In this document: one piece after another, positions 33,256-44,571 of the stretch
How positions within the stretch are numbered: the stretch's first letter is position 1
Layout: each line of letters begins with the position of its first letter
Assembly: GCF_002854065.1 (NCBI RefSeq)
Contig: NZ_CP024147.1
Length of the DNA stretch: 64,000 nt
Strand: one strand, 5' to 3'
Source: Escherichia coli
GTDB lineage: Bacteria > Pseudomonadota > Gammaproteobacteria > Enterobacterales > Enterobacteriaceae
The notes under the pieces: model-generated
Databases searched by the model: none
What the model was told of the DNA's origin: nothing
What the model saw: only the letters and a program-made list of their open reading frames with translations
Position numbers and translations under genes: made by a program

Positions 33256-34410
33256 ATGCCAGAAAATTACACCCCTGCTGCCGCCGCAACCGGTACATGG
33301 ACTGAAGAAGAGATCCGCCATCAGCCTCGCGCATGGATCCGTTCACTCACCAACATCGACGCGCTACGTTCCGCGCTCAATAACTTCCTTGAACCGTTAC
33401 TGCGCAAAGAGAATCTGCGGATCATCCTGACCGGAGCCGGAACCTCAGCATTTATCGGTGACATCATCGCACCGTGGCTCGCCAGCCATACCGGTAAAAA
33501 CTTCAGCGCTGTACCAACCACCGATCTGGTCACTAATCCGATGGACTACCTGAACCCAGCCCATCCGCTGCTGTTGATCTCCTTCGGTCGATCCGGCAAC
33601 AGCCCGGAAAGCGTCGCAGCCGTGGAACTGGCAAATCAATTTGTACCGGAATGCTATCACCTGCCGATTACCTGCAACGAAGCGGGCGCTCTTTACCAAA
33701 ACGCGATCAACAGCGATAACGCGTTTGCCCTGCTGATGCCCGCAGAAACGCACGATCGCGGCTTTGCGATGACCAGCAGCATTACCACCATGATGGCCAG
33801 CTGCCTCGCGGTTTTCGCACCTGAGACGATCAACAGCCAAACCTTCCGCGACGTGGCGGATCGTTGCCAGGCGATCCTGACCTCACTGGGCGATTTCAGC
33901 GAAGGTGTGTTTGGTTACGCACCATGGAAACGGATCGTTTATCTCGGCAGCGGTGGCTTACAGGGCGCAGCACGCGAGTCGGCGCTGAAAGTGCTGGAAC
34001 TGACGGCGGGTAAACTGGCGGCCTTTTATGATTCTCCAACCGGATTCCGTCATGGACCAAAATCGCTGGTCGATGACGAAACGCTGGTGGTGGTATTTGT
34101 CTCCAGCCACCCTTACACCCGTCAGTATGATCTTGATCTGCTGGCTGAACTCCGCCGTGACAACCAGGCAATGCGCGTAATCGCCATCGCCGCGGAAAGC
34201 AGCGACATCGTCGCTGCCGGTCCACATATTATCCTGCCACCGTCACGTCACTTTATCGACGTTGAGCAGGCATTTTGCTTCCTGATGTACGCCCAGACGT
34301 TTGCACTGATGCAGTCGCTGCACATGGGCAATACGCCGGATACCCCATCAGCCAGTGGCACCGTTAACCGCGTGGTGCAAGGCGTAATCATTCATCCATG
34401 GCAGGCATAA
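33256..34410 (+). CDS. agaS: SIS-domain sugar-phosphate isomerase/deaminase (galactosamine-6-phosphate)
   Basis: 384-aa ORF at the agaS position. Confidence 0.92.
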   Translation: MPENYTPAAAATGTWTEEEIRHQPRAWIRSLTNIDALRSALNNFLEPLLRKENLRIILTGAGTSAFIGDIIAPWLASHTGKNFSAVPTTDLVTNPMDYLNPAHPLLLISFGRSGNSPESVAAVELANQFVPECYHLPITCNEAGALYQNAINSDNAFALLMPAETHDRGFAMTSSITTMMASCLAVFAPETINSQTFRDVADRCQAILTSLGDFSEGVFGYAPWKRIVYLGSGGLQGAARESALKVLELTAGKLAAFYDSPTGFRHGPKSLVDDETLVVVFVSSHPYTRQYDLDLLAELRRDNQAMRVIAIAAESSDIVAAGPHIILPPSRHFIDVEQAFCFLMYAQTFALMQSLHMGNTPDTPSASGTVNRVVQGVIIHPWQA

Positions 34411-35283
<873 letters not shown>

Positions 35284-35449
35284 TCATTAGTTTTTTATGA
35301 TTTATCCCAATGTACTTCCCGATTAATATCGGGGAGTGCCTTAATGGAAAAGGAGATGACTAAACCTTAATAAATACATCAGTACAATATTGCAACAATA
35401 ATATATTTAAAAAAATTATATTATTCAACTTTATGGTGAGGATTACACA

Positions 35450-35926
35450 ATGAGCAGTCCAAATATTCTCTTAACCCGTATTGATAACCGTCTGGTTCAC
35501 GGTCAGGTTGGCGTGACCTGGACATCCACCATCGGTGCGAATCTGCTGGTAGTCGTGGATGATGTTGTCGCTAACGATGATATTCAACAGAAATTAATGG
35601 GTATTACCGCAGAAACCTACGGCTTTGGCATTCGTTTCTTTACTATCGAAAAAACCATTAACGTCATCGGCAAAGCTGCACCGCATCAGAAGATCTTCCT
35701 GATTTGCCGTACGCCACAAACGGTACGTAAATTGGTAGAAGGTGGCATTGACCTGAAAGATGTCAACGTCGGCAATATGCATTTCTCGGAAGGGAAAAAG
35801 CAAATCAGCAGTAAAGTTTATGTCGATGACCAGGATCTCACGGACTTACGTTTTATTAAACAACGTGGCGTGAATGTTTTCATTCAGGACGTCCCTGGCG
35901 ATCAAAAAGAACAAATCCCTGACTAA
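35450..35926 (+). CDS. agaB: PTS EIIB (galactosamine)
   Basis: 158-aa ORF with the same N-terminal RIDNRLVHGQVGV pattern as agaV. Confidence 0.92.
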   Translation: MSSPNILLTRIDNRLVHGQVGVTWTSTIGANLLVVVDDVVANDDIQQKLMGITAETYGFGIRFFTIEKTINVIGKAAPHQKIFLICRTPQTVRKLVEGGIDLKDVNVGNMHFSEGKKQISSKVYVDDQDLTDLRFIKQRGVNVFIQDVPGDQKEQIPD

Positions 35927-36140
35927 ATCTAAAATCGCCTTAATATTGGTTTGAGGTAATAAAAATGCATGAAATAACCCTACTTCAGGGATTATCCCTG
36001 GCGGCGTTAGTTTTCGTTCTGGGGATTGATTTTTGGCTGGAAGCCTTATTTTTATTCCGCCCGATAATCGTTTGTACCCTAACTGGGTGATGCTGCCAAC
36101 TTACTGATTTAGTGTATGATGGTGTTTTTGAGGTGCTCCA

Positions 36141-36416
36141 GTGGCTTCTGTTTCTATCAGCTGTCCCTCCTGTTCAGCTACTGACGGGGTGGTGCGTAAC
36201 GGCAAAAGCACCGCCGGACATCAGCGCTATCTCTGCTCTCACTGCCGTAAAACATGGCAACTGCAGTTCACTTACACCGCTTCTCAACCCGGTACGCACC
36301 AGAAAATCATTGATATGGCCATGAATGGCGTTGGATGCCGGGCAACTGCCCGCATTATGGGCGTTGGCCTCAACACGATTTTACGTCACTTAAAAAACTC
36401 AGGCCGCAGTCGGTAA
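36141..36416 (+). CDS. insA: IS1 InsA
   Basis: 91-aa [46 protein letters not shown]..., matching IS1 InsA from memory. Confidence 0.9.
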
Positions 36417-36838
36417 CCTCGCGCATACAGCCGGGCAGTGACGTCATCGTCTGCGCGGAAATGGACGAACAGTGGGGCTATGTCGGGGCTAAATCGCGCC
36501 AGCGCTGGCTGTTTTACGCGTATGACAGTCTCCGGAAGACGGTTGTTGCGCACGTATTCGGTGAACGCACTATGGCGACGCTGGGGCGTCTTATGAGCCT
36601 GCTGTCACCCTTTGACGTGGTGATATGGATGACGGATGGCTGGCCGCTGTATGAATCCCGCCTGAAGGGAAAGCTGCACGTAATCAGCAAGCGATATACG
36701 CAGCGAATTGAGCGGCATAACCTGAATCTGAGGCAGCACCTGGCACGGCTGGGACGGAAGTCGCTGTCGTTCTCAAAATCGGTGGAGCTGCATGACAAAG
36801 TCATCGGGCATTATCTGAACATAAAACACTATCAATAA
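36335..36838 (+). CDS. insB: IS1 InsB (made as InsAB fusion by -1 frameshift)
   Basis: 167-aa ORF in the -1 frame relative to insA; slippery motif TTAAAAAAC at 36390..36398. Confidence 0.85.
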
Positions 36839-37534
36839 GTTGGAGTCATTACCCCCTAACTGGCGCTATTCTCGGTGATATTCAGACTGGCTTAATTACC
36901 GGTGGTCTGACAGAGTTGGCTTTCGCCGGATTAACCCCTGCAGGTGGTGTTCAGCCGCCCAACCCGATTATGGCGGGTCTGATGACCACCGTCATTGCAT
37001 GGTCTACGGGCGTTGATGCCAAAACAGCAATTGGTCTTGGCCTGCCGTTTAGTTTGTTAATGCAGTACGTCATTCTGTTCTTCTATTCCGCTTTCTCATT
37101 ATTTATGACCAAAGCCGATAAATGCGCGAAAGAGGCGGATACGGCAGCGTTTTCCCGACTTAACTGGACAACGATGCTCATCGTCGCTTCAGCGTATGCG
37201 GTGATTGCTTTCCTCTGTACTTACCTGGCACAAGGGGCGATGCAGGCGCTGGTGAAAGCGATGCCCGCCTGGTTGACCCACGGCTTTGAAGTGGCTGGCG
37301 GTATTCTGCCTGCCGTTGGTTTTGGCTTGCTGCTGCGCGTGATGTTCAAAGCACAATATATCCCTTACCTGATCGCCGGCTTTCTGTTTGTTTGCTACAT
37401 CCAGGTCAGCAACCTGTTGCCGGTTGCCGTACTGGGCGCAGGCTTTGCGGTGTATGAGTTTTTCAATGCGAAATCCCGGCAGCAAGCGCAACCGCAGCCC
37501 GTTGCCAGTAAAAATGAAGAAGAGGACTACAGCA

Positions 37535-38326
37535 ATGGGATCTGAAATCAGTAAAAAAGATATCACCCGTCTGGGCTTTCGTTCGTCGCTGCTGCAAGCG
37601 AGCTTTAACTACGAAAGGATGCAGGCGGGCGGTTTTACCTGGGCGATGTTGCCGATCCTGAAAAAGATTTATAAGGATGACAAACCGGGCCTAAGCGCAG
37701 CGATGAAAGATAACCTCGAATTTATTAATACCCACCCGAATCTGGTCGGATTCCTGATGGGGTTATTAATTTCGATGGAAGAAAAAGGAGAAAACCGCGA
37801 CACCATTAAAGGCCTCAAAGTGGCACTGTTTGGCCCAATCGCCGGGATTGGCGATGCGATTTTCTGGTTTACTTTGTTGCCGATTATGGCGGGAATTTGC
37901 TCATCATTTGCCAGCCAGGGAAACCTGCTGGGGCCGATTCTATTTTTCGCCGTTTACCTGCTTATCTTTTTCCTGCGCGTCGGCTGGACCCACGTCGGTT
38001 ATTCAGTCGGCGTGAAGGCGATCGATAAAGTGCGAGAGAACTCGCAGATGATTGCTCGCTCGGCAACCATCCTCGGGATCACGGTAATCGGCGGGCTGAT
38101 CGCTTCGTATGTGCATATTAACGTGGTGACATCGTTTGCCATCGACAGTACCCACAGCGTTGCGCTGCAGCAGGATTTCTTCGATAAAGTCTTCCCGAAC
38201 ATTTTACCGATGGCCTACACCCTGCTGATGTATTACTTCCTGCGGGTGAAAAAAGCGCATCCGGTGCTGTTAATCGGCGTGACTTTTGTGCTCTCTATTG
38301 TTTGTTCCGCATTCGGCATTTTGTAA
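37535..38326 (+). CDS. agaD: PTS EIID (galactosamine)
   Basis: Track ORF from 37388; start set to ATG 37535 (MGSEISKKDITRLGF) giving 263 aa; overlaps the agaC stop. Confidence 0.92.
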   Translation: MGSEISKKDITRLGFRSSLLQASFNYERMQAGGFTWAMLPILKKIYKDDKPGLSAAMKDNLEFINTHPNLVGFLMGLLISMEEKGENRDTIKGLKVALFGPIAGIGDAIFWFTLLPIMAGICSSFASQGNLLGPILFFAVYLLIFFLRVGWTHVGYSVGVKAIDKVRENSQMIARSATILGITVIGGLIASYVHINVVTSFAIDSTHSVALQQDFFDKVFPNILPMAYTLLMYYFLRVKKAHPVLLIGVTFVLSIVCSAFGIL

Positions 38327-39094
38327 ATGGAACGAGGCACTGCGTCTGGCGGTGCCTCTTTACTTAAGGAATTTCATCCTGTGCAAACCCTTCAGCAAGT
38401 TGAAAACTATACGGCGTTAAGTGAACGTGCCAGCGAATATTTATTGGCCGTGATCCGTAGCAAACCGGATGCCGTGATTTGCCTGGCGACCGGAGCCACG
38501 CCATTACTGACGTATCATTATCTGGTAGAAAAAATCCACCAGCAGCAGGTTGATGTCAGCCAGCTGACCTTCGTCAAGCTCGACGAATGGGTGGATCTGC
38601 CATTAACTATGCCTGGCACCTGCGAAACTTTCCTGCAACAGCATATCGTGCAGCCGCTGGGGCTACGTGAAGACCAGCTCATCAGCTTTCGCTCCGAAGA
38701 GATAAATGAGACAGAGTGCGAACGGGTAACGAACCTGATTGCGCGCAAAGGCGGTCTGGATTTATGCGTTCTCGGATTGGGGAAAAACGGTCATCTTGGG
38801 CTGAACGAACCGGGAGAAAACCTGCAACCGGCCTGCCATATCAGTCAACTTGATGCCAGAACACAGCAACATGAGATGTTAAAAACCGCGGGTCGCCCCG
38901 TGACTCGTGGGATCACCTTAGGCCTGAAGGATATTCTCAATGCCCGCGAGGTTTTGTTACTGGTGACTGGCGAAGGAAAGCAGGATGCGACAGAACGTTT
39001 TCTCACGGCTAAAGTCTCCACCGCTATCCCGGCTTCGTTTTTATGGCTGCATAACCATTTCACATGCGTGATTGATGAGATGTGTCGTCGTTAA
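38327..39094 (+). CDS. agaI: Galactosamine-6-phosphate deaminase/isomerase (NagB-like)
   Basis: 255-aa ORF; the extreme C-terminus may differ from the K-12 protein I recall. Confidence 0.88.
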   Translation: MERGTASGGASLLKEFHPVQTLQQVENYTALSERASEYLLAVIRSKPDAVICLATGATPLLTYHYLVEKIHQQQVDVSQLTFVKLDEWVDLPLTMPGTCETFLQQHIVQPLGLREDQLISFRSEEINETECERVTNLIARKGGLDLCVLGLGKNGHLGLNEPGENLQPACHISQLDARTQQHEMLKTAGRPVTRGITLGLKDILNAREVLLLVTGEGKQDATERFLTAKVSTAIPASFLWLHNHFTCVIDEMCRR

Positions 39095-39217
39095 CATCCC
39101 CCTTAGCCCGGAAAAATAAGAAAAGTGCTCATGAGTTTTGAGCACTTCGTTCCGGTTCAGTATGAACGTCCTCCGTTATTATGCCATCACAATGTAAACC
39201 TAAAGGTTGACAAAAAG

Positions 39218-39577
39218 ATGGTGAAAAATCAGACTAACAAAAAACGTGATAAAAATCTTCCAGTCATGCTGTTAAGTGTGGCCAGAAAGGAATTGTTTGA
39301 TCTTAGTGCAATCGATCGAGCGGAATTCATTGCTGCTATTGACGATTTCGAAGAGTTAGGTCCCTGCTCTTCCCTGGTGAATACCGAAAAAGTTCAAGGG
39401 GATATGTATGAAATTAAAACACATAGTCAGAGCCATTGGTTAAGGGGTTTTTATTTTCACTTTCATCAAGGGCTATGGGTCATCACACATATCTTTGCTA
39501 AAAAAACGAACAAAACGCCTAAAGCCAACATCGAGTTAGGTTTAGCACGTTATAAGGCCTTACTTTCGACAAACTAA
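39218..39577 (+). CDS. Putative type II toxin, RelE/ParE superfamily (Gp49/HigB-like)
   Basis: Track ORF 39125..39577 (GTG start inside a hairpin); likely start ATG 39218 (119 aa) or 39266 (103 aa); C-terminal motif WVITHIFAKKTNKTPKANIELGLARYK resembles the phage Gp49/HigB-like toxin family; about 38% GC by eye. Confidence 0.55.
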   Translation: MVKNQTNKKRDKNLPVMLLSVARKELFDLSAIDRAEFIAAIDDFEELGPCSSLVNTEKVQGDMYEIKTHSQSHWLRGFYFHFHQGLWVITHIFAKKTNKTPKANIELGLARYKALLSTN

Positions 39578-39600
39578 GCAAGCTTCCAGGAGAAATAGAA

Positions 39601-39903
39601 ATGAAGAAAAATAACGAGTTACATCACTGGGAAGACGTGAAAACAGAATTACTTAAGGACGAAGCAACCGCTAATGCTCTTGATGTTGTTGTACAACGCA
39701 AAGCGGTTCTTTCCCAACTCGTGGAAAAACGCAAAGCCCTCAATCTGAGCCAAACTGCCGTGGCGAAGCAACTTGGTGTTACCCGACAAGCGGTGAGTAA
39801 ATTTGAAAAAGGAGAAAGTTCACCAACATTAGATGTTGTTTTTAGCTATGCAAATGCTATCGGCATCGATCTGTTCGGCTCACTAAAAAGACTGATTGTT
39901 TAG
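39601..39903 (+). CDS. Putative antitoxin, XRE-family helix-turn-helix DNA-binding protein
   Basis: 100-aa ORF 24 bp downstream of the toxin with AGGAG-type ribosome-binding site; helix-turn-helix LSQTAVAKQLGVTRQAVSKFEKGESSPTLD. Confidence 0.6.
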   Translation: MKKNNELHHWEDVKTELLKDEATANALDVVVQRKAVLSQLVEKRKALNLSQTAVAKQLGVTRQAVSKFEKGESSPTLDVVFSYANAIGIDLFGSLKRLIV

Positions 39904-39945
39904 CAGGCGGCCCCAGGGTTCTTCAAACGGGGCCACGGAGAGATA

Positions 39946-40809
39946 TCACTCTCCCTGCTGCTCCAGCGCATACTTATACAGCGCATTTTTCTTCACGCCG
40001 TGAATTTCTGCGGCCAGCGCCGCCGCTTTTTTCAGCGGCAGTTCTGCCTGTAGCAGCGCCAGCGTGCGCAGGGCATCGGCGGGTAAGTCTTCTTCCTGTG
40101 CTTTATGACCTTCGACAATCAGCACCATTTCGCCTTTGCGGCGGTTTTCATCTTCCTTTACCCACGCCAGCAGCTCGCCAACGGGCGCGCCGTGAATGGT
40201 TTCCCAGGTTTTGGTTAGCTCACGCGCCAGAACCACATAACGGGATTCGCCTAATACCGCAACGATATCTTCCAGGCTATCTAACAGACGGTGGGTAGAT
40301 TCATAAAAAATCAGCGTGCGCGGCTCCGCTTCAATGGCTTTTAGCGCATCACGGCGGCCTTTTGATTTGGCAGGTAAAAAGCCTTCGTAACAGAAACGGT
40401 CAGAGGGTAAACCTGCGGCGCTTAACGCAGTGATAGCAGCACACGGCCCGGGTAGCGGCACCACGCGAATCCCCGCTTCACGGCAGGTACGCACCAGATG
40501 GTAGCCAGGATCGTTAATTAGCGGCGTTCCGGCATCGGAAACCAGCGCAATGTTTTGCCCCTCTTGCAGCTTCGCCAGCAGCGTTTCGGCTTTTTGTTGT
40601 TCGTTATGGTCGTGCAGTGCAAACAACCGGGCATTAATCCCAAAATGTTGCAGCAATAAACCGGTGTGACGAGTATCCTCGGCGGCAATCAGATCAACGG
40701 CCTGTAATACCTCTAACGCACGCTGGGTGATATCCGCCAGATTGCCGATTGGCGTCGGTACAATGTAAAGCTGGCCCTGAGAATTATCCGCCGATTGGTG
40801 TTGTTTCAT
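39946..40809 (-). CDS. rsmI: 16S rRNA 2-prime-O-ribose C1402 methyltransferase
   Basis: 287-codon ORF beginning [28 protein letters not shown]. Confidence 0.93.
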
Positions 40810-40873
40810 TGTGTCGTCCGTATTGCCGATTTAATATTGAGCATTGCGTAAAAAAAATATCACTGGATACATT

Positions 40874-42910
40874 ATGGTACCCTCAACATTTTCTCGTTTG
40901 AAAGCCGCGCGTTGTCTGCCTGTTGTTCTGGCAGCCCTGATTTTCGCCGGTTGTGGCACCCATACTCCCGATCAGTCCACTGCTTATATGCAGGGCACGG
41001 CGCAGGCTGATTCTGCCTTTTATCTTCAGCAGATGCAGCAAAGCTCTGATGATACCAGGATCAACTGGCAATTACTCGCCATTCGTGCACTGGTGAAAGA
41101 AGGTAAAACCGGGCAGGCGGTTGAGTTGTTTAACCAACTACCGCAAGAACTGAATGATTCTCAGCGTCGCGAGAAAACACTGCTGGCGGTAGAGATTAAA
41201 CTGGCGCAGAAAGATTTTGCTGGCGCGCAAAACTTGCTGGCGAAAATTACACCCGCCGATTTAGAACAAAACCAGCAAGCCCGTTACTGGCAGGCAAAAA
41301 TCGATGCCAGCCAGGGGCGTCCTTCCATTGATTTACTGCGCGCGTTAATTGCTCAGGAACCGCTGCTTGGCGCGAAAGAAAAACAGCAGAATATTGATGC
41401 CACCTGGCAGGCGCTCTCCTCCATGACTCAGGAGCAGGCGAATACGCTGGTGATCAACGCCGACGAAAATATTCTGCAAGGCTGGCTGGATCTGCAGCGC
41501 GTCTGGTTTGATAACCGTAACGATCCCGACATGATGAAAGCCGGGATCGCCGACTGGCAGAAACGTTATCCGAACAACCCGGGCGCGAAAATGCTGCCAA
41601 CGCAGTTGGTTAACGTAAAAGCGTTTAAACCAGCCTCGACCAACAAAATCGCCCTGCTGTTGCCACTGAATGGCCAGGCAGCGGTATTTGGTCGCACTAT
41701 TCAGCAAGGCTTTGAAGCGGCGAAAAATATCGGCACTCAGCCAGTGGCAGCTCAGGTAGCTGCCGCACCTGCCGCAGACGTAGCAGAACAACCTCAACCG
41801 CAAACCGTGGATGGCGTTGCCAGCCCGGCACAAGCCTCGGTTAGCGATCTGACCGGTGAACAGCCTGCAGCCCAGCCGGTGCCTGTAAGCGCCCCGGCGA
41901 CAAGCACCGCAGCGGTAAGCGCACCCGCAAATCCATCCGCAGAGCTGAAAATCTACGATACCTCATCACAACCACTTAGCCAGATCTTAAGCCAGGTTCA
42001 GCAGGATGGCGCGAGTATTGTGGTCGGTCCGTTGCTGAAAAATAACGTTGAAGAGTTGCTGAAGAGCAACACTCCGCTGAACGTACTGGCACTGAACCAG
42101 CCGGAGAATATCGAAAATCGCGTCAATATTTGTTACTTCGCGCTTTCACCGGAAGACGAAGCGCGCGATGCAGCGCGTCATATTCGTGACCAGGGTAAAC
42201 AAGCGCCGCTGGTGCTGATCCCACGCAGTTCATTGGGCGATCGCGTAGCCAATGCGTTTGCGCAAGAGTGGCAGAAACTGGGCGGCGGCACCGTTCTGCA
42301 ACAAAAATTTGGTTCCACCAGCGAATTACGCGCGGGTGTTAACGGCGGTTCTGGTATCGCTTTAACGGGTACCCCGATTACTCTCAGAGCGACAACCGAC
42401 TCCGGCATGACGACCAACAATCCAACGCTGCAAACCACGCCAACCGATGACCAGTTCACCAATAATGGCGGTCGTGTCGATGCGGTGTACATTGTGGCAA
42501 CGCCGGGTGAAATCGCTTTTATCAAACCGATGATCGCCATGCGTAACGGTAGCCAGAGCGGTGCAACGCTGTACGCCAGCTCCCGCAGTGCGCAAGGGAC
42601 CGCTGGCCCGGATTTCCGACTGGAGATGGAAGGCTTGCAGTACAGCGAAATCCCGATGCTGGCAGGCGGTAATCTGCCGTTAATGCAGCAGGCGCTCAGC
42701 GCGGTGAACAACGATTATTCGCTGGCTCGCATGTATGCGATGGGCGTTGATGCCTGGTCGTTGGCAAATCATTTCTCACAAATGCGCCAGGTTCAGGGTT
42801 TTGAAATCAACGGTAATACCGGAAGCCTGACGGCTAACCCGGATTGCGTGATTAACAGGAAGTTATCATGGCTACAGTACCAACAAGGTCAGGTAGTCCC
42901 CGCCAGTTAA
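40874..42910 (+). CDS. lpoA: Penicillin-binding protein 1A activator lipoprotein
   Basis: Track ORF from 40844; start set to ATG 40874 ([28 protein letters not shown], lipobox) giving 678 aa. Confidence 0.93.
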
Positions 42911-43263
42911 CCACCAAACAGACCGGCGATGCGTGGGAAGTACAAGCGCGTCGCTGGCTGGAAGGCAAAGGACTGCGATTTGTCGCCGCTAACGTGAACG
43001 AGCGTGGCGGCGAGATCGATCTGATAATGCGTGAAGGCCGGACCACCGTTTTTGTCGAGGTGCGTTACCGCCGTTCTGCGCTTTATGGCGGCGCGGCAGC
43101 CAGTGTGACCTGCAGCAAACAACACAAATTATTACAGACTGCCCGCTTGTGGCTCGCGCGTCATAATGGGAGTTTTGATACTGTGGATTGCCGGTTCGAT
43201 GTGGTAGCCTTCACCGGGAATGAGGTTGAGTGGATTAAGGATGCCTTTAATGACCACTCATAA
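42868..43263 (+). CDS. yraN: UPF0102 family protein
   Basis: 131-aa ORF overlapping the lpoA 3-prime end by 43 nt in another frame. Confidence 0.88.
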
Positions 43264-43282
43264 TTAAGGTTTAAGGATTAGC

Positions 43283-43873
43283 GTGCAAGAAAGAATTAAA
43301 GCTTGCTTCACTGAAAGCATTCAAACTCAAATTGCGGCGGCAGAGGCGCTTCCGGATGCCATCTCCCGTGCGGCCATGACGCTGGTTCAGTCTCTGCTCA
43401 ATGGCAACAAAATCCTCTGTTGTGGTAATGGAACTTCCGCTGCCAATGCACAGCATTTTGCTGCCAGCATGATCAACCGTTTCGAAACGGAGCGGCCCAG
43501 CTTACCTGCCATTGCACTAAATACTGATAATGTTGTCTTAACGGCGATTGCCAACGATCGCTTACATGATGAAGTGTATGCAAAACAGGTGCGGGCGCTG
43601 GGTCATGCGGGAGATGTATTGTTAGCCATTTCCACCCGTGGCAACAGCCGCGATATTGTAAAAGCGGTAGAAGCTGCCGTTACGCGTGATATGACCATTG
43701 TGGCATTAACCGGCTATGACGGCGGTGAACTTGCAGGTTTGTTAGGGCCACAGGATGTGGAAATCCGCATTCCTTCGCATCGTAGTGCTCGCATTCAGGA
43801 AATGCATATGCTGACGGTAAATTGCCTGTGCGATCTGATCGATAACACGCTTTTCCCTCACCAGGATGATTAA
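43283..43873 (+). CDS. diaA: DnaA initiator-associating protein (SIS domain)
   Basis: 196-aa ORF with GTG start ([16 protein letters not shown]...). Confidence 0.93.
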
Positions 43874-43882
43874 GGAGAATAC

Positions 43883-44458
43883 ATGAAGGCATTATCGCCA
43901 ATCGCAGTCCTTATTTCCGCGCTGCTGTTGCAAGGTTGTGTTGCCGCTGCCGTAGTGGGTACTGCTGCTGTGGGTACCAAAGCCGCAACTGACCCACGCA
44001 GTGTCGGCACCCAGGTGGACGATGGTACCCTGGAAGTGCGCGTGAACAGCGCATTGTCGAAAGACGAACAGATTAAGAAAGAAGCGCGTATTAATGTAAC
44101 GGCCTATCAGGGCAAAGTGCTGCTGGTTGGGCAGTCACCAAACGCTGAACTTTCGGCTCGCGCCAAACAGATTGCTATGGGCGTAGACGGTGCCAACGAA
44201 GTGTATAACGAGATTCGTCAGGGCCAGCCGATTGGTCTGGGCGAAGCGTCTAACGATACGTGGATCACCACCAAAGTGCGTTCGCAGCTCTTAACCAGCG
44301 ACCTGGTGAAATCGTCCAACGTGAAAGTGACCACCGAAAACGGTGAAGTGTTCCTGATGGGGCTGGTGACTGAACGTGAAGCGAAAGCGGCGGCAGATAT
44401 TGCCAGCCGGGTGAGCGGCGTGAAGCGAGTAACTACGGCGTTTACGTTTATTAAATAG
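43883..44458 (+). CDS. dolP: Outer membrane lipoprotein with BON domains
   Basis: 191-aa ORF with lipobox LLLQGC. Confidence 0.93.
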   Translation: MKALSPIAVLISALLLQGCVAAAVVGTAAVGTKAATDPRSVGTQVDDGTLEVRVNSALSKDEQIKKEARINVTAYQGKVLLVGQSPNAELSARAKQIAMGVDGANEVYNEIRQGQPIGLGEASNDTWITTKVRSQLLTSDLVKSSNVKVTTENGEVFLMGLVTEREAKAAADIASRVSGVKRVTTAFTFIK

Positions 44459-44470
44459 CAGCCCCTTGTA

Positions 44471-44547
44471 ATGCCTGATGCGACGCTTGCCGCGTCTTAT
44501 CAGGCCTACAACGATGCAAACCGTAGGTCGGATAAGGCGTTTACGCC
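44471..44547. repeat. REP elements
   Basis: ATGCCTGATGCGACGCTTGCCGCGTCTTATCAGGCCTAC and GTAGGTCGGATAAGGCGTTTACGCCGCATCCGACATG. Confidence 0.65.
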
Positions 44548-44571
44548 GCATCCGACATGTTTTCCCTCAAA

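Follow-up and report, generated by a model that had tools for sequence, protein, structure and literature searches.

An IS1 insertion with a 9-bp target duplication interrupts agaC, the gene for the galactosamine transporter subunit IIC, in Escherichia coli

The aga locus and its interrupted agaC gene

For description of the aga locus, the open reading frames of a 64-kb stretch of E. coli DNA (the window, to which all positions refer) were read together with NCBIfam models and with the annotation of colinear relatives. The gene order agaS-kbaY-agaB-agaC-agaD-agaI could be followed along the plus strand from these three sources, which identified AgaB, AgaD and AgaI by their NCBIfam models. Within this order, agaC is split into two fragments by a copy of IS1. 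The genes and features at the break are as follows.

33256-35283, plus strand: agaS and kbaY, both intact; they precede the insertion in the operon and are unaffected by it (open reading frames; annotation of colinear relatives)
35450-35926, plus strand: agaB (IIB, 158 aa), intact and preceding the insertion (NF007288, 282 bits, cut-off 180)
35965-36090, plus strand: 5' fragment of agaC, in the open reading frame list a truncated frame of 41 aa that ends in CTLTG and is then closed by a TGA from the left end of IS1
36077-36085: left copy of the 9-bp target-site duplication, CCCTAACTG, covering part of agaC codons 38-41
36086-36853, plus strand: complete IS1 of 768 bp (IS1A type), reading in the direction of the aga operon
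36854-36862: right copy of the 9-bp target-site duplication, CCCTAACTG
36862-37545, plus strand: 3' fragment of agaC, codons 41-267 and the stop, lacking the start codon of the gene; the earliest start in frame is the TTG at 36916
37535-38326, plus strand: agaD (IID, 263 aa), intact (NF007359, 456 bits, cut-off 400)
38327-39094, plus strand: agaI (255 aa), intact, with which the operon ends (NF007291, 472 bits, cut-off 271)

The start of agaD overlaps the end of agaC by 11 nt. When the two agaC fragments were rejoined as described below, the restored protein scored 407 bits on NF007289, 'PTS galactosamine transporter subunit IIC' (equivalog cut-off 300), and 411 bits on TIGR00822 (cut-off 340); AgaC belongs to the mannose/fructose/sorbose PTS family. 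The model for AgaW gave 233 bits with the same protein, below its cut-off of 300. Over residues 3-258, the restored protein can be aligned end to end with ManY, which is the IIC subunit in the mannose permease structure 6K1H; the part paired with ManY 'RPLIACTLVGIVLGD' contains the break. In published work, the products of agaBCD are the galactosamine-specific EIIB, EIIC, and EIID that serve uptake of D-galactosamine (Gam), agaI is dispensable for the use of both Aga and Gam, and agaS with the genes downstream of it is under the AgaR-repressed promoter Ps (PMC3668189).

Upstream of the operon, agaA (the Aga-6-P deacetylase gene, labelled nagA in RefSeq; 31772-32905) was found to carry an in-frame TAG at codon 238 (32483-32485), where the intact protein has Trp. 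The same pseudogene is annotated in E. coli 100416 and CUWW06, the closest relatives of the source strain, and it is therefore older than the IS1 insertion. Because NagA is able to replace AgaA (PMC3668189), the source strain may still use Aga despite this stop codon. At the other end of the operon, agaI is annotated with 768 bp (255 aa) in the window and its closest relatives, versus 756 bp in ST361, ET490, and SW071610. The allele (38327-39094) differs at its 3' end or at the downstream junction, where it adjoins the region in which yraH-K is replaced. Most E. coli have the yraHIJK fimbrial operon between agaI and rsmI; in its place, the window carries a toxin-antitoxin-like gene pair (39125-39903). 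One of the two genes encodes a 150-aa Gp49-like protein of the RelE superfamily (PF05973, E = 1.6e-20), the other an XRE-type HTH protein of 100 aa. This arrangement between agaI and rsmI was seen in 12 of 5,426 complete genomes.

Anatomy and identity of the IS1 element

The element in agaC was examined for the parts expected of IS1, which are listed here in order of position.

36086-36108, plus strand: left terminal inverted repeat (IRL), 23 bp, GGTGATGCTGCCAACTTACTGAT, exact match
36141-36416, plus strand: insA, 91 aa, with a GTG start (open reading frame list)
36141-36838, plus strand: InsAB' reading frame, 232 aa, formed by a -1 shift in which base 36395 is read again, with 0 internal stops
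36392-36398, plus strand: A6C motif (AAAAAAC) for programmed -1 frameshifting; the codons in the insA frame are TTA AAA AAC (36390-36398)
36831-36853, minus strand: right terminal inverted repeat (IRR), 23 bp, GGTAATGACTCCAACTTATTGAT in reverse complement, exact match

A first-pass annotation of the sequence had proposed that a complete 768-bp IS1 lies in agaC, and this was borne out by both exact ends, insA, the A6C motif, and the open InsAB' frame. Read on the plus strand (window sequence 35800-37100), the element begins with GGTGATGCTGCCAACTTACTGAT and ends with ATCAATAAGTTGGAGTCATTACC. The canonical IS1 ends GGTGATGCTGCCAACTTACTGAT and GGTAATGACTCCAACTTATTGAT each gave one match in the 64-kb window at 0 mismatches, where shuffled sequences gave an expectation of 0, and the window therefore holds a single IS1. 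The InsAB' product scored 243 bits against NCBIfam NF033558, the IS1 family transposase equivalog (cut-off 100). All of the features by which the family is recognized were found, namely a length of about 768 bp, imperfect inverted repeats of about 23 bp, insA and insB' joined through A6C, and a 9-bp target duplication. Over its whole length (768/768) the element is identical to IS1 copies in E. coli SUISSEKPC3NDM5 and SW071610, which carry the RefSeq label 'IS1-like element IS1A family transposase, programmed frameshift'. In a consensus scan, a promoter-like site (CTGCCA-16-TATGAT) was seen at 36093-36120, overlapping IRL and facing insA; we take it to be the IS1 insA promoter. The copy is thus a standard IS1 and, judging by its intact sequence, presumably active.

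Target-site duplication and restoration of agaC

The two copies of CCCTAACTG that flank the element are identical, in agreement with the perfect 9-bp direct repeat reported in the first-pass annotation. A script that searched both strands of the 64-kb window found no further copy of the 9-mer, and the probability of a 9-bp match at two fixed positions by chance is about 4e-6. A repeat search returned a length of 10 bp instead of 9; the extra base arises only because IS1 begins with G and a G also follows the right copy. The insertion had been placed 40 codons into agaC; the splitting of the gene was confirmed, and the position needs correction, as the break lies within codon 41, behind its first base, and not after codon 40. 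Removal of IS1 together with one copy of the repeat (deletion of 36086-36862) gave a continuous 267-aa AgaC starting at 35965, as had been anticipated.

Empty site in close relatives and age of the insertion

The closest relatives were traced through the rare region downstream of agaI (39050-39960). They are E. coli 100416, from human stool in the Gambia, and CUWW06, from wastewater in Thailand, both of which align with the window at 99.95-99.96% identity, colinear and without gaps over about 47 kb (window 1-34185 and 31273-46960), with some 20 substitutions in this length. For 100416, window positions 1-34185 were colinear with 13 mismatches and 0 gaps; positions 31273-36086 and 36854-46960 also aligned, and the overlap of these last two segments corresponds to one copy of the duplication. 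In 100416 and CUWW06 alike, agaC is an uninterrupted gene of 804 bp with a single CCCTAACTG at the empty site, and the window sequence from 36000 to 36950 matches both exactly once the element and one repeat copy are excised. The comparison with other strains suggested at first pass thus led to near-identical genomes that carry the empty site. With colinear and gap-free relatives at this level of identity, about 47 kb thus contain no structural difference apart from IS1.

The same alignments bear on whether IS1 is here the end-point of a rearrangement, such as an IS1-mediated deletion or inversion or one part of a composite transposon, rather than a simple insertion. IS1-bounded deletions are known at this locus in other strains, from yhaV to agaB in JP538 and MB50 and from agaD to yraJ in PRO_A-1412. 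In the window, however, the 9-bp duplication is perfect, the flanks are colinear with those of the uninterrupted relatives with no bases missing or extra, and no second IS1 end lies within the 64 kb. The exact match of the excised sequence to the loci of 100416 and CUWW06 refutes a rearrangement end-point, to which we leave a vanishingly small probability.

Searches for the junction were made in complete RefSeq E. coli genomes, in GTDB representatives, and in JGI metagenome contigs. With a strict limit on the E-value, a 60-nt query centered on the left junction gave 0 spanning matches in 5,426 complete E. coli genomes. A 34-nt junction pattern gave 0 matches in the GTDB representatives (one genome per species) and likewise 0 matches in the JGI metagenome contigs. 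A 100-nt junction query was uninformative, its halves being joined across the offset of the insertion found in ST361 genomes (see below), and presence was settled with the 60-nt query. Taken together, the empty site in the relatives and the absence of the junction from these collections point to an insertion that is recent and, within the collections searched, private to the strain. The description of the event at first pass as relatively recent and unrearranged fits these data, with flanks colinear to 100416 and free of gaps, an element still identical at 768/768 positions to copies elsewhere, and a junction absent from all three collections. The junction sequence of the source strain, ATCGTTTGTACCCTAACTGGGTGATGCTGCCAAC, is strain-specific and could be used for typing.

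It could be argued that the insertion is old and inherited within a lineage, looking private because the relatives that carry it are outside the collections searched, for example among draft assemblies or Shigella. Clonal inheritance of this sort is seen for other IS1 insertions in agaC, which have been passed on to dozens of genomes, for example in the ST361 clade. Against this, the two nearest genomes lack the insertion at a distance of about 20 substitutions in 47 kb, the copies of the duplication are identical, and the element has itself not diverged from copies elsewhere. An old insertion is thus considered improbable, and a recent one is preferred.

Other IS1 insertions at the aga locus

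To place the insertion among others at the locus, a 1.6-kb query was used, which returned 81 genomes with IS1 in or near agaB-agaC; their insertions were mapped onto the empty-site reference. In every genome inspected among the 81, IS1 lies at another position than in the window and represents an independent event. The insertions and deletions were as follows, with positions given as window equivalents.

ST361 clade: IS1 in agaC, duplication at 36888-36896, same orientation as in the window; 34 bp downstream on the empty site, about 47 genomes
ET490: IS1 in agaC, duplication AATCGTTTG at 36066-36074, same orientation; 11 bp upstream of the window site
Strain 3045 group: IS1 in agaC, 36056-36064, opposite orientation (minus strand); a second IS1 in the kbaY-agaB spacer
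SW071610, 1296KP, and JBEHAAB-19-0176: IS1 in agaB, with two copies in JBEHAAB-19-0176
Group of at least 14 genomes: IS1 in agaB, one shared event
CUWW06: IS1 in the kbaY-agaB spacer
JP538 and MB50: IS1-bounded deletion, yhaV to agaB
PRO_A-1412: IS1-bounded deletion, agaD to yraJ

ET490 had been a candidate for the same insertion, as it matched the query in a single piece at full length; it was rejected on account of its position and its different duplication. The insertions of the ST361 clade, ET490, and the strain 3045 group share the type of element and the gene with that of the window, lie within 11-34 bp of it, and in two of the three cases have the same orientation. Their duplications, TGGCTTAAT, AATCGTTTG, and TCCGCCCGA, differ from CCCTAACTG, and they have yraHIJK downstream, whereas the window has the toxin-antitoxin pair. 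With different duplications and different genomic backgrounds, these are therefore independent events, so that four independent IS1 insertions, that of the window included, have their duplications within 64 bp.

Over the wider region from the kbaY-agaB spacer to agaD (35358-37702), independent events involving IS1, either insertions or IS1-bounded deletions, numbered at least 13 in complete E. coli genomes. Point nonsense lesions also occur nearby, with an internal stop in agaC of JP538 and another in agaB of ET490. The agaC::IS1A allele was present in all inspected genomes of the carbapenemase-associated ST361 lineage (e.g. NZ_CP083701.1, 4293296-4293993), and the junction type was found in about 47 genomes. 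This allele could serve as a marker for the clade, and it implies a Gam-negative clone.

Such recurrence raises the question whether the 5' end of agaC is a true hot-spot for IS1, or whether positive selection favors loss of the galactosamine transporter, with the window as one convergent case. In favor of this are the four insertions within 64 bp and the 13 or more events between the kbaY-agaB spacer and agaD. IS1 was found near the agaC site in 81 genomes, versus 4 and 9 for arbitrary sites in garD and tdcC that were used as in-silico control chimeras. Further lesions in the same genes, namely the agaC amber of O157:H7 (PMC3668189) and the stops in JP538 and ET490, point the same way. The 81 genomes are, however, mostly clonal, with about 47 of the ST361 type and at least 14 in one agaB group, and when counted as events the excess over the garD and tdcC controls is only about two-fold. 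A Monte Carlo estimate for the clustering within 64 bp gave p values of about 0.02-0.1, depending on the denominator, and local GC around the insertion (39-45%) is unremarkable. The IS1 hot-spot of pBR322 provides a lead to IHF. No match to the IHF-type consensus WATCAANNNNTTR with up to 1 mismatch was found between 35900 and 36250, and an IHF site was dropped as an explanation of the clustering.

Clustering of IS1 at the 5' end of agaC is accordingly only marginally above chance. Because the excess is mostly clonal and the Monte Carlo p value lies between 0.02 and 0.1, a hot-spot or convergent loss is judged unlikely as the setting of the window's insertion. More doubtful still is the broader proposal that the first 150 bp or so of agaC, or all of agaBCD, is a preferred IS1 target, or that loss of the PTS membrane subunits has been selected recurrently in gut or clinical lineages such as ST361. 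If this were true, the private insertion of the window would be one more replicate of a convergent event. As a speculative reason for such selection, IIC/IID complexes of the mannose family might act as receptors for the entry of bacteriocins or phages.

Proposed event and predicted consequences

Taken as a whole, the data are best explained by a single, simple, and recent transposition of IS1 into agaC with loss of galactosamine uptake, a reading that we hold with high confidence; for its structural part, no contradicting evidence was met in the analysis. In this reading, one transposition put an intact element of the IS1A type behind the first base of codon 41, in the direction of the agaS-kbaY-agaBCDI operon, producing the usual 9-bp target duplication, and it dates from after the split from the closest sequenced relatives. 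What remains of agaC is a stub of 41 aa and a 3' fragment with neither promoter nor start. Whereas the anatomy of the element, the continuous agaC obtained by excision, the uninterrupted site of the relatives, and the private junction were read directly, phenotype and polarity are predicted from them.

The galactosamine PTS would be left without its IIC membrane subunit, and the strain is for this reason predicted to have lost D-galactosamine uptake (Gam-). On the basis of what is published for agaBCD (PMC3668189), uptake in the source strain is almost certainly abolished. The genes behind agaC would be affected as well. Transcription from the agaS promoter would have to cross IS1 and then about 690 nt of untranslated agaC before reaching agaD, and translational coupling of agaD would be lost. 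IS1 insertions are strongly polar in either orientation, and the element contains a transcription terminator, reportedly the subject of Hubner, Iida & Arber (1987). IS1 is therefore likely to be polar on agaD and agaI, which the first-pass annotation had reasonably suggested. With agaD lying behind IS1 and untranslated agaC, and with its start overlapping the end of agaC, low expression of agaD and agaI is to be expected, probably a strong reduction through IS1- or Rho-type polarity in addition to the loss of coupling.

A crude consensus scan showed no outward promoter at the right end of IS1 at the consensus threshold, and promoter-like sites overall were no more numerous than in shuffled sequences. 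Insertions of IS1 can sometimes create hybrid promoters, as reportedly documented by Prentki et al. (1986), and given the crudeness of the scan some residual expression of agaD and agaI may persist. N-acetylgalactosamine catabolism should escape the agaC lesion, because agaS and kbaY lie upstream of it and agaVWEF forms a separate operon; use of N-acetylgalactosamine should thus be unaffected by the insertion. Since agaA already carries its TAG, the aga pathway may have been under relaxed selection before IS1 arrived, and the added effect of the insertion on fitness may be nil. For the source strain, a simple metabolic marker is predicted, a Gam-negative phenotype.

Comparison with known systems

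In a literature search on agaC and IS1, PMC3668189 was the sole relevant paper, and nearly all other matches were primer strings. The insertion is an ordinary disruption of a gene by IS1, of an already known kind, and involves no new type of element. As a type of event, a gene of a catabolic operon interrupted by IS1 with a 9-bp duplication belongs to the textbook, and only the junction is unrecorded in the collections searched. No new biology is involved; the recurrence of independent IS1 events in agaB and agaC is mildly interesting and statistically marginal.

When compared with the IS1A/IS1R type of E. coli and Shigella, the element is alike in size, ends, insA, A6C motif, 232-aa InsAB', and 9-bp duplication. 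It shows no difference of any kind, and its insertion site alone is new relative to the searched collections. At the level of the operon, the classical polar IS1 insertions in gal and lac likewise struck a promoter-proximal gene of a polycistronic catabolic operon and left the distal genes intact; for agaC, polarity is a prediction.

The nearest functional parallel is provided by O157:H7 strains EDL933 and Sakai, in which an amber at agaC codon 8 is responsible for the Gam- phenotype (PMC3668189). The same gene is cut early in both cases, at codon 8 there and at codon 41 here, with loss of EIIC-Gam, and the same phenotype would be expected, Gam- with the use of Aga independent of agaC. The two lesions differ in kind: that of O157:H7 is a point nonsense mutation, whereas the one described here is an insertion of an IS, which would in addition be polar on agaD and agaI and could in principle revert if IS1 were excised precisely.
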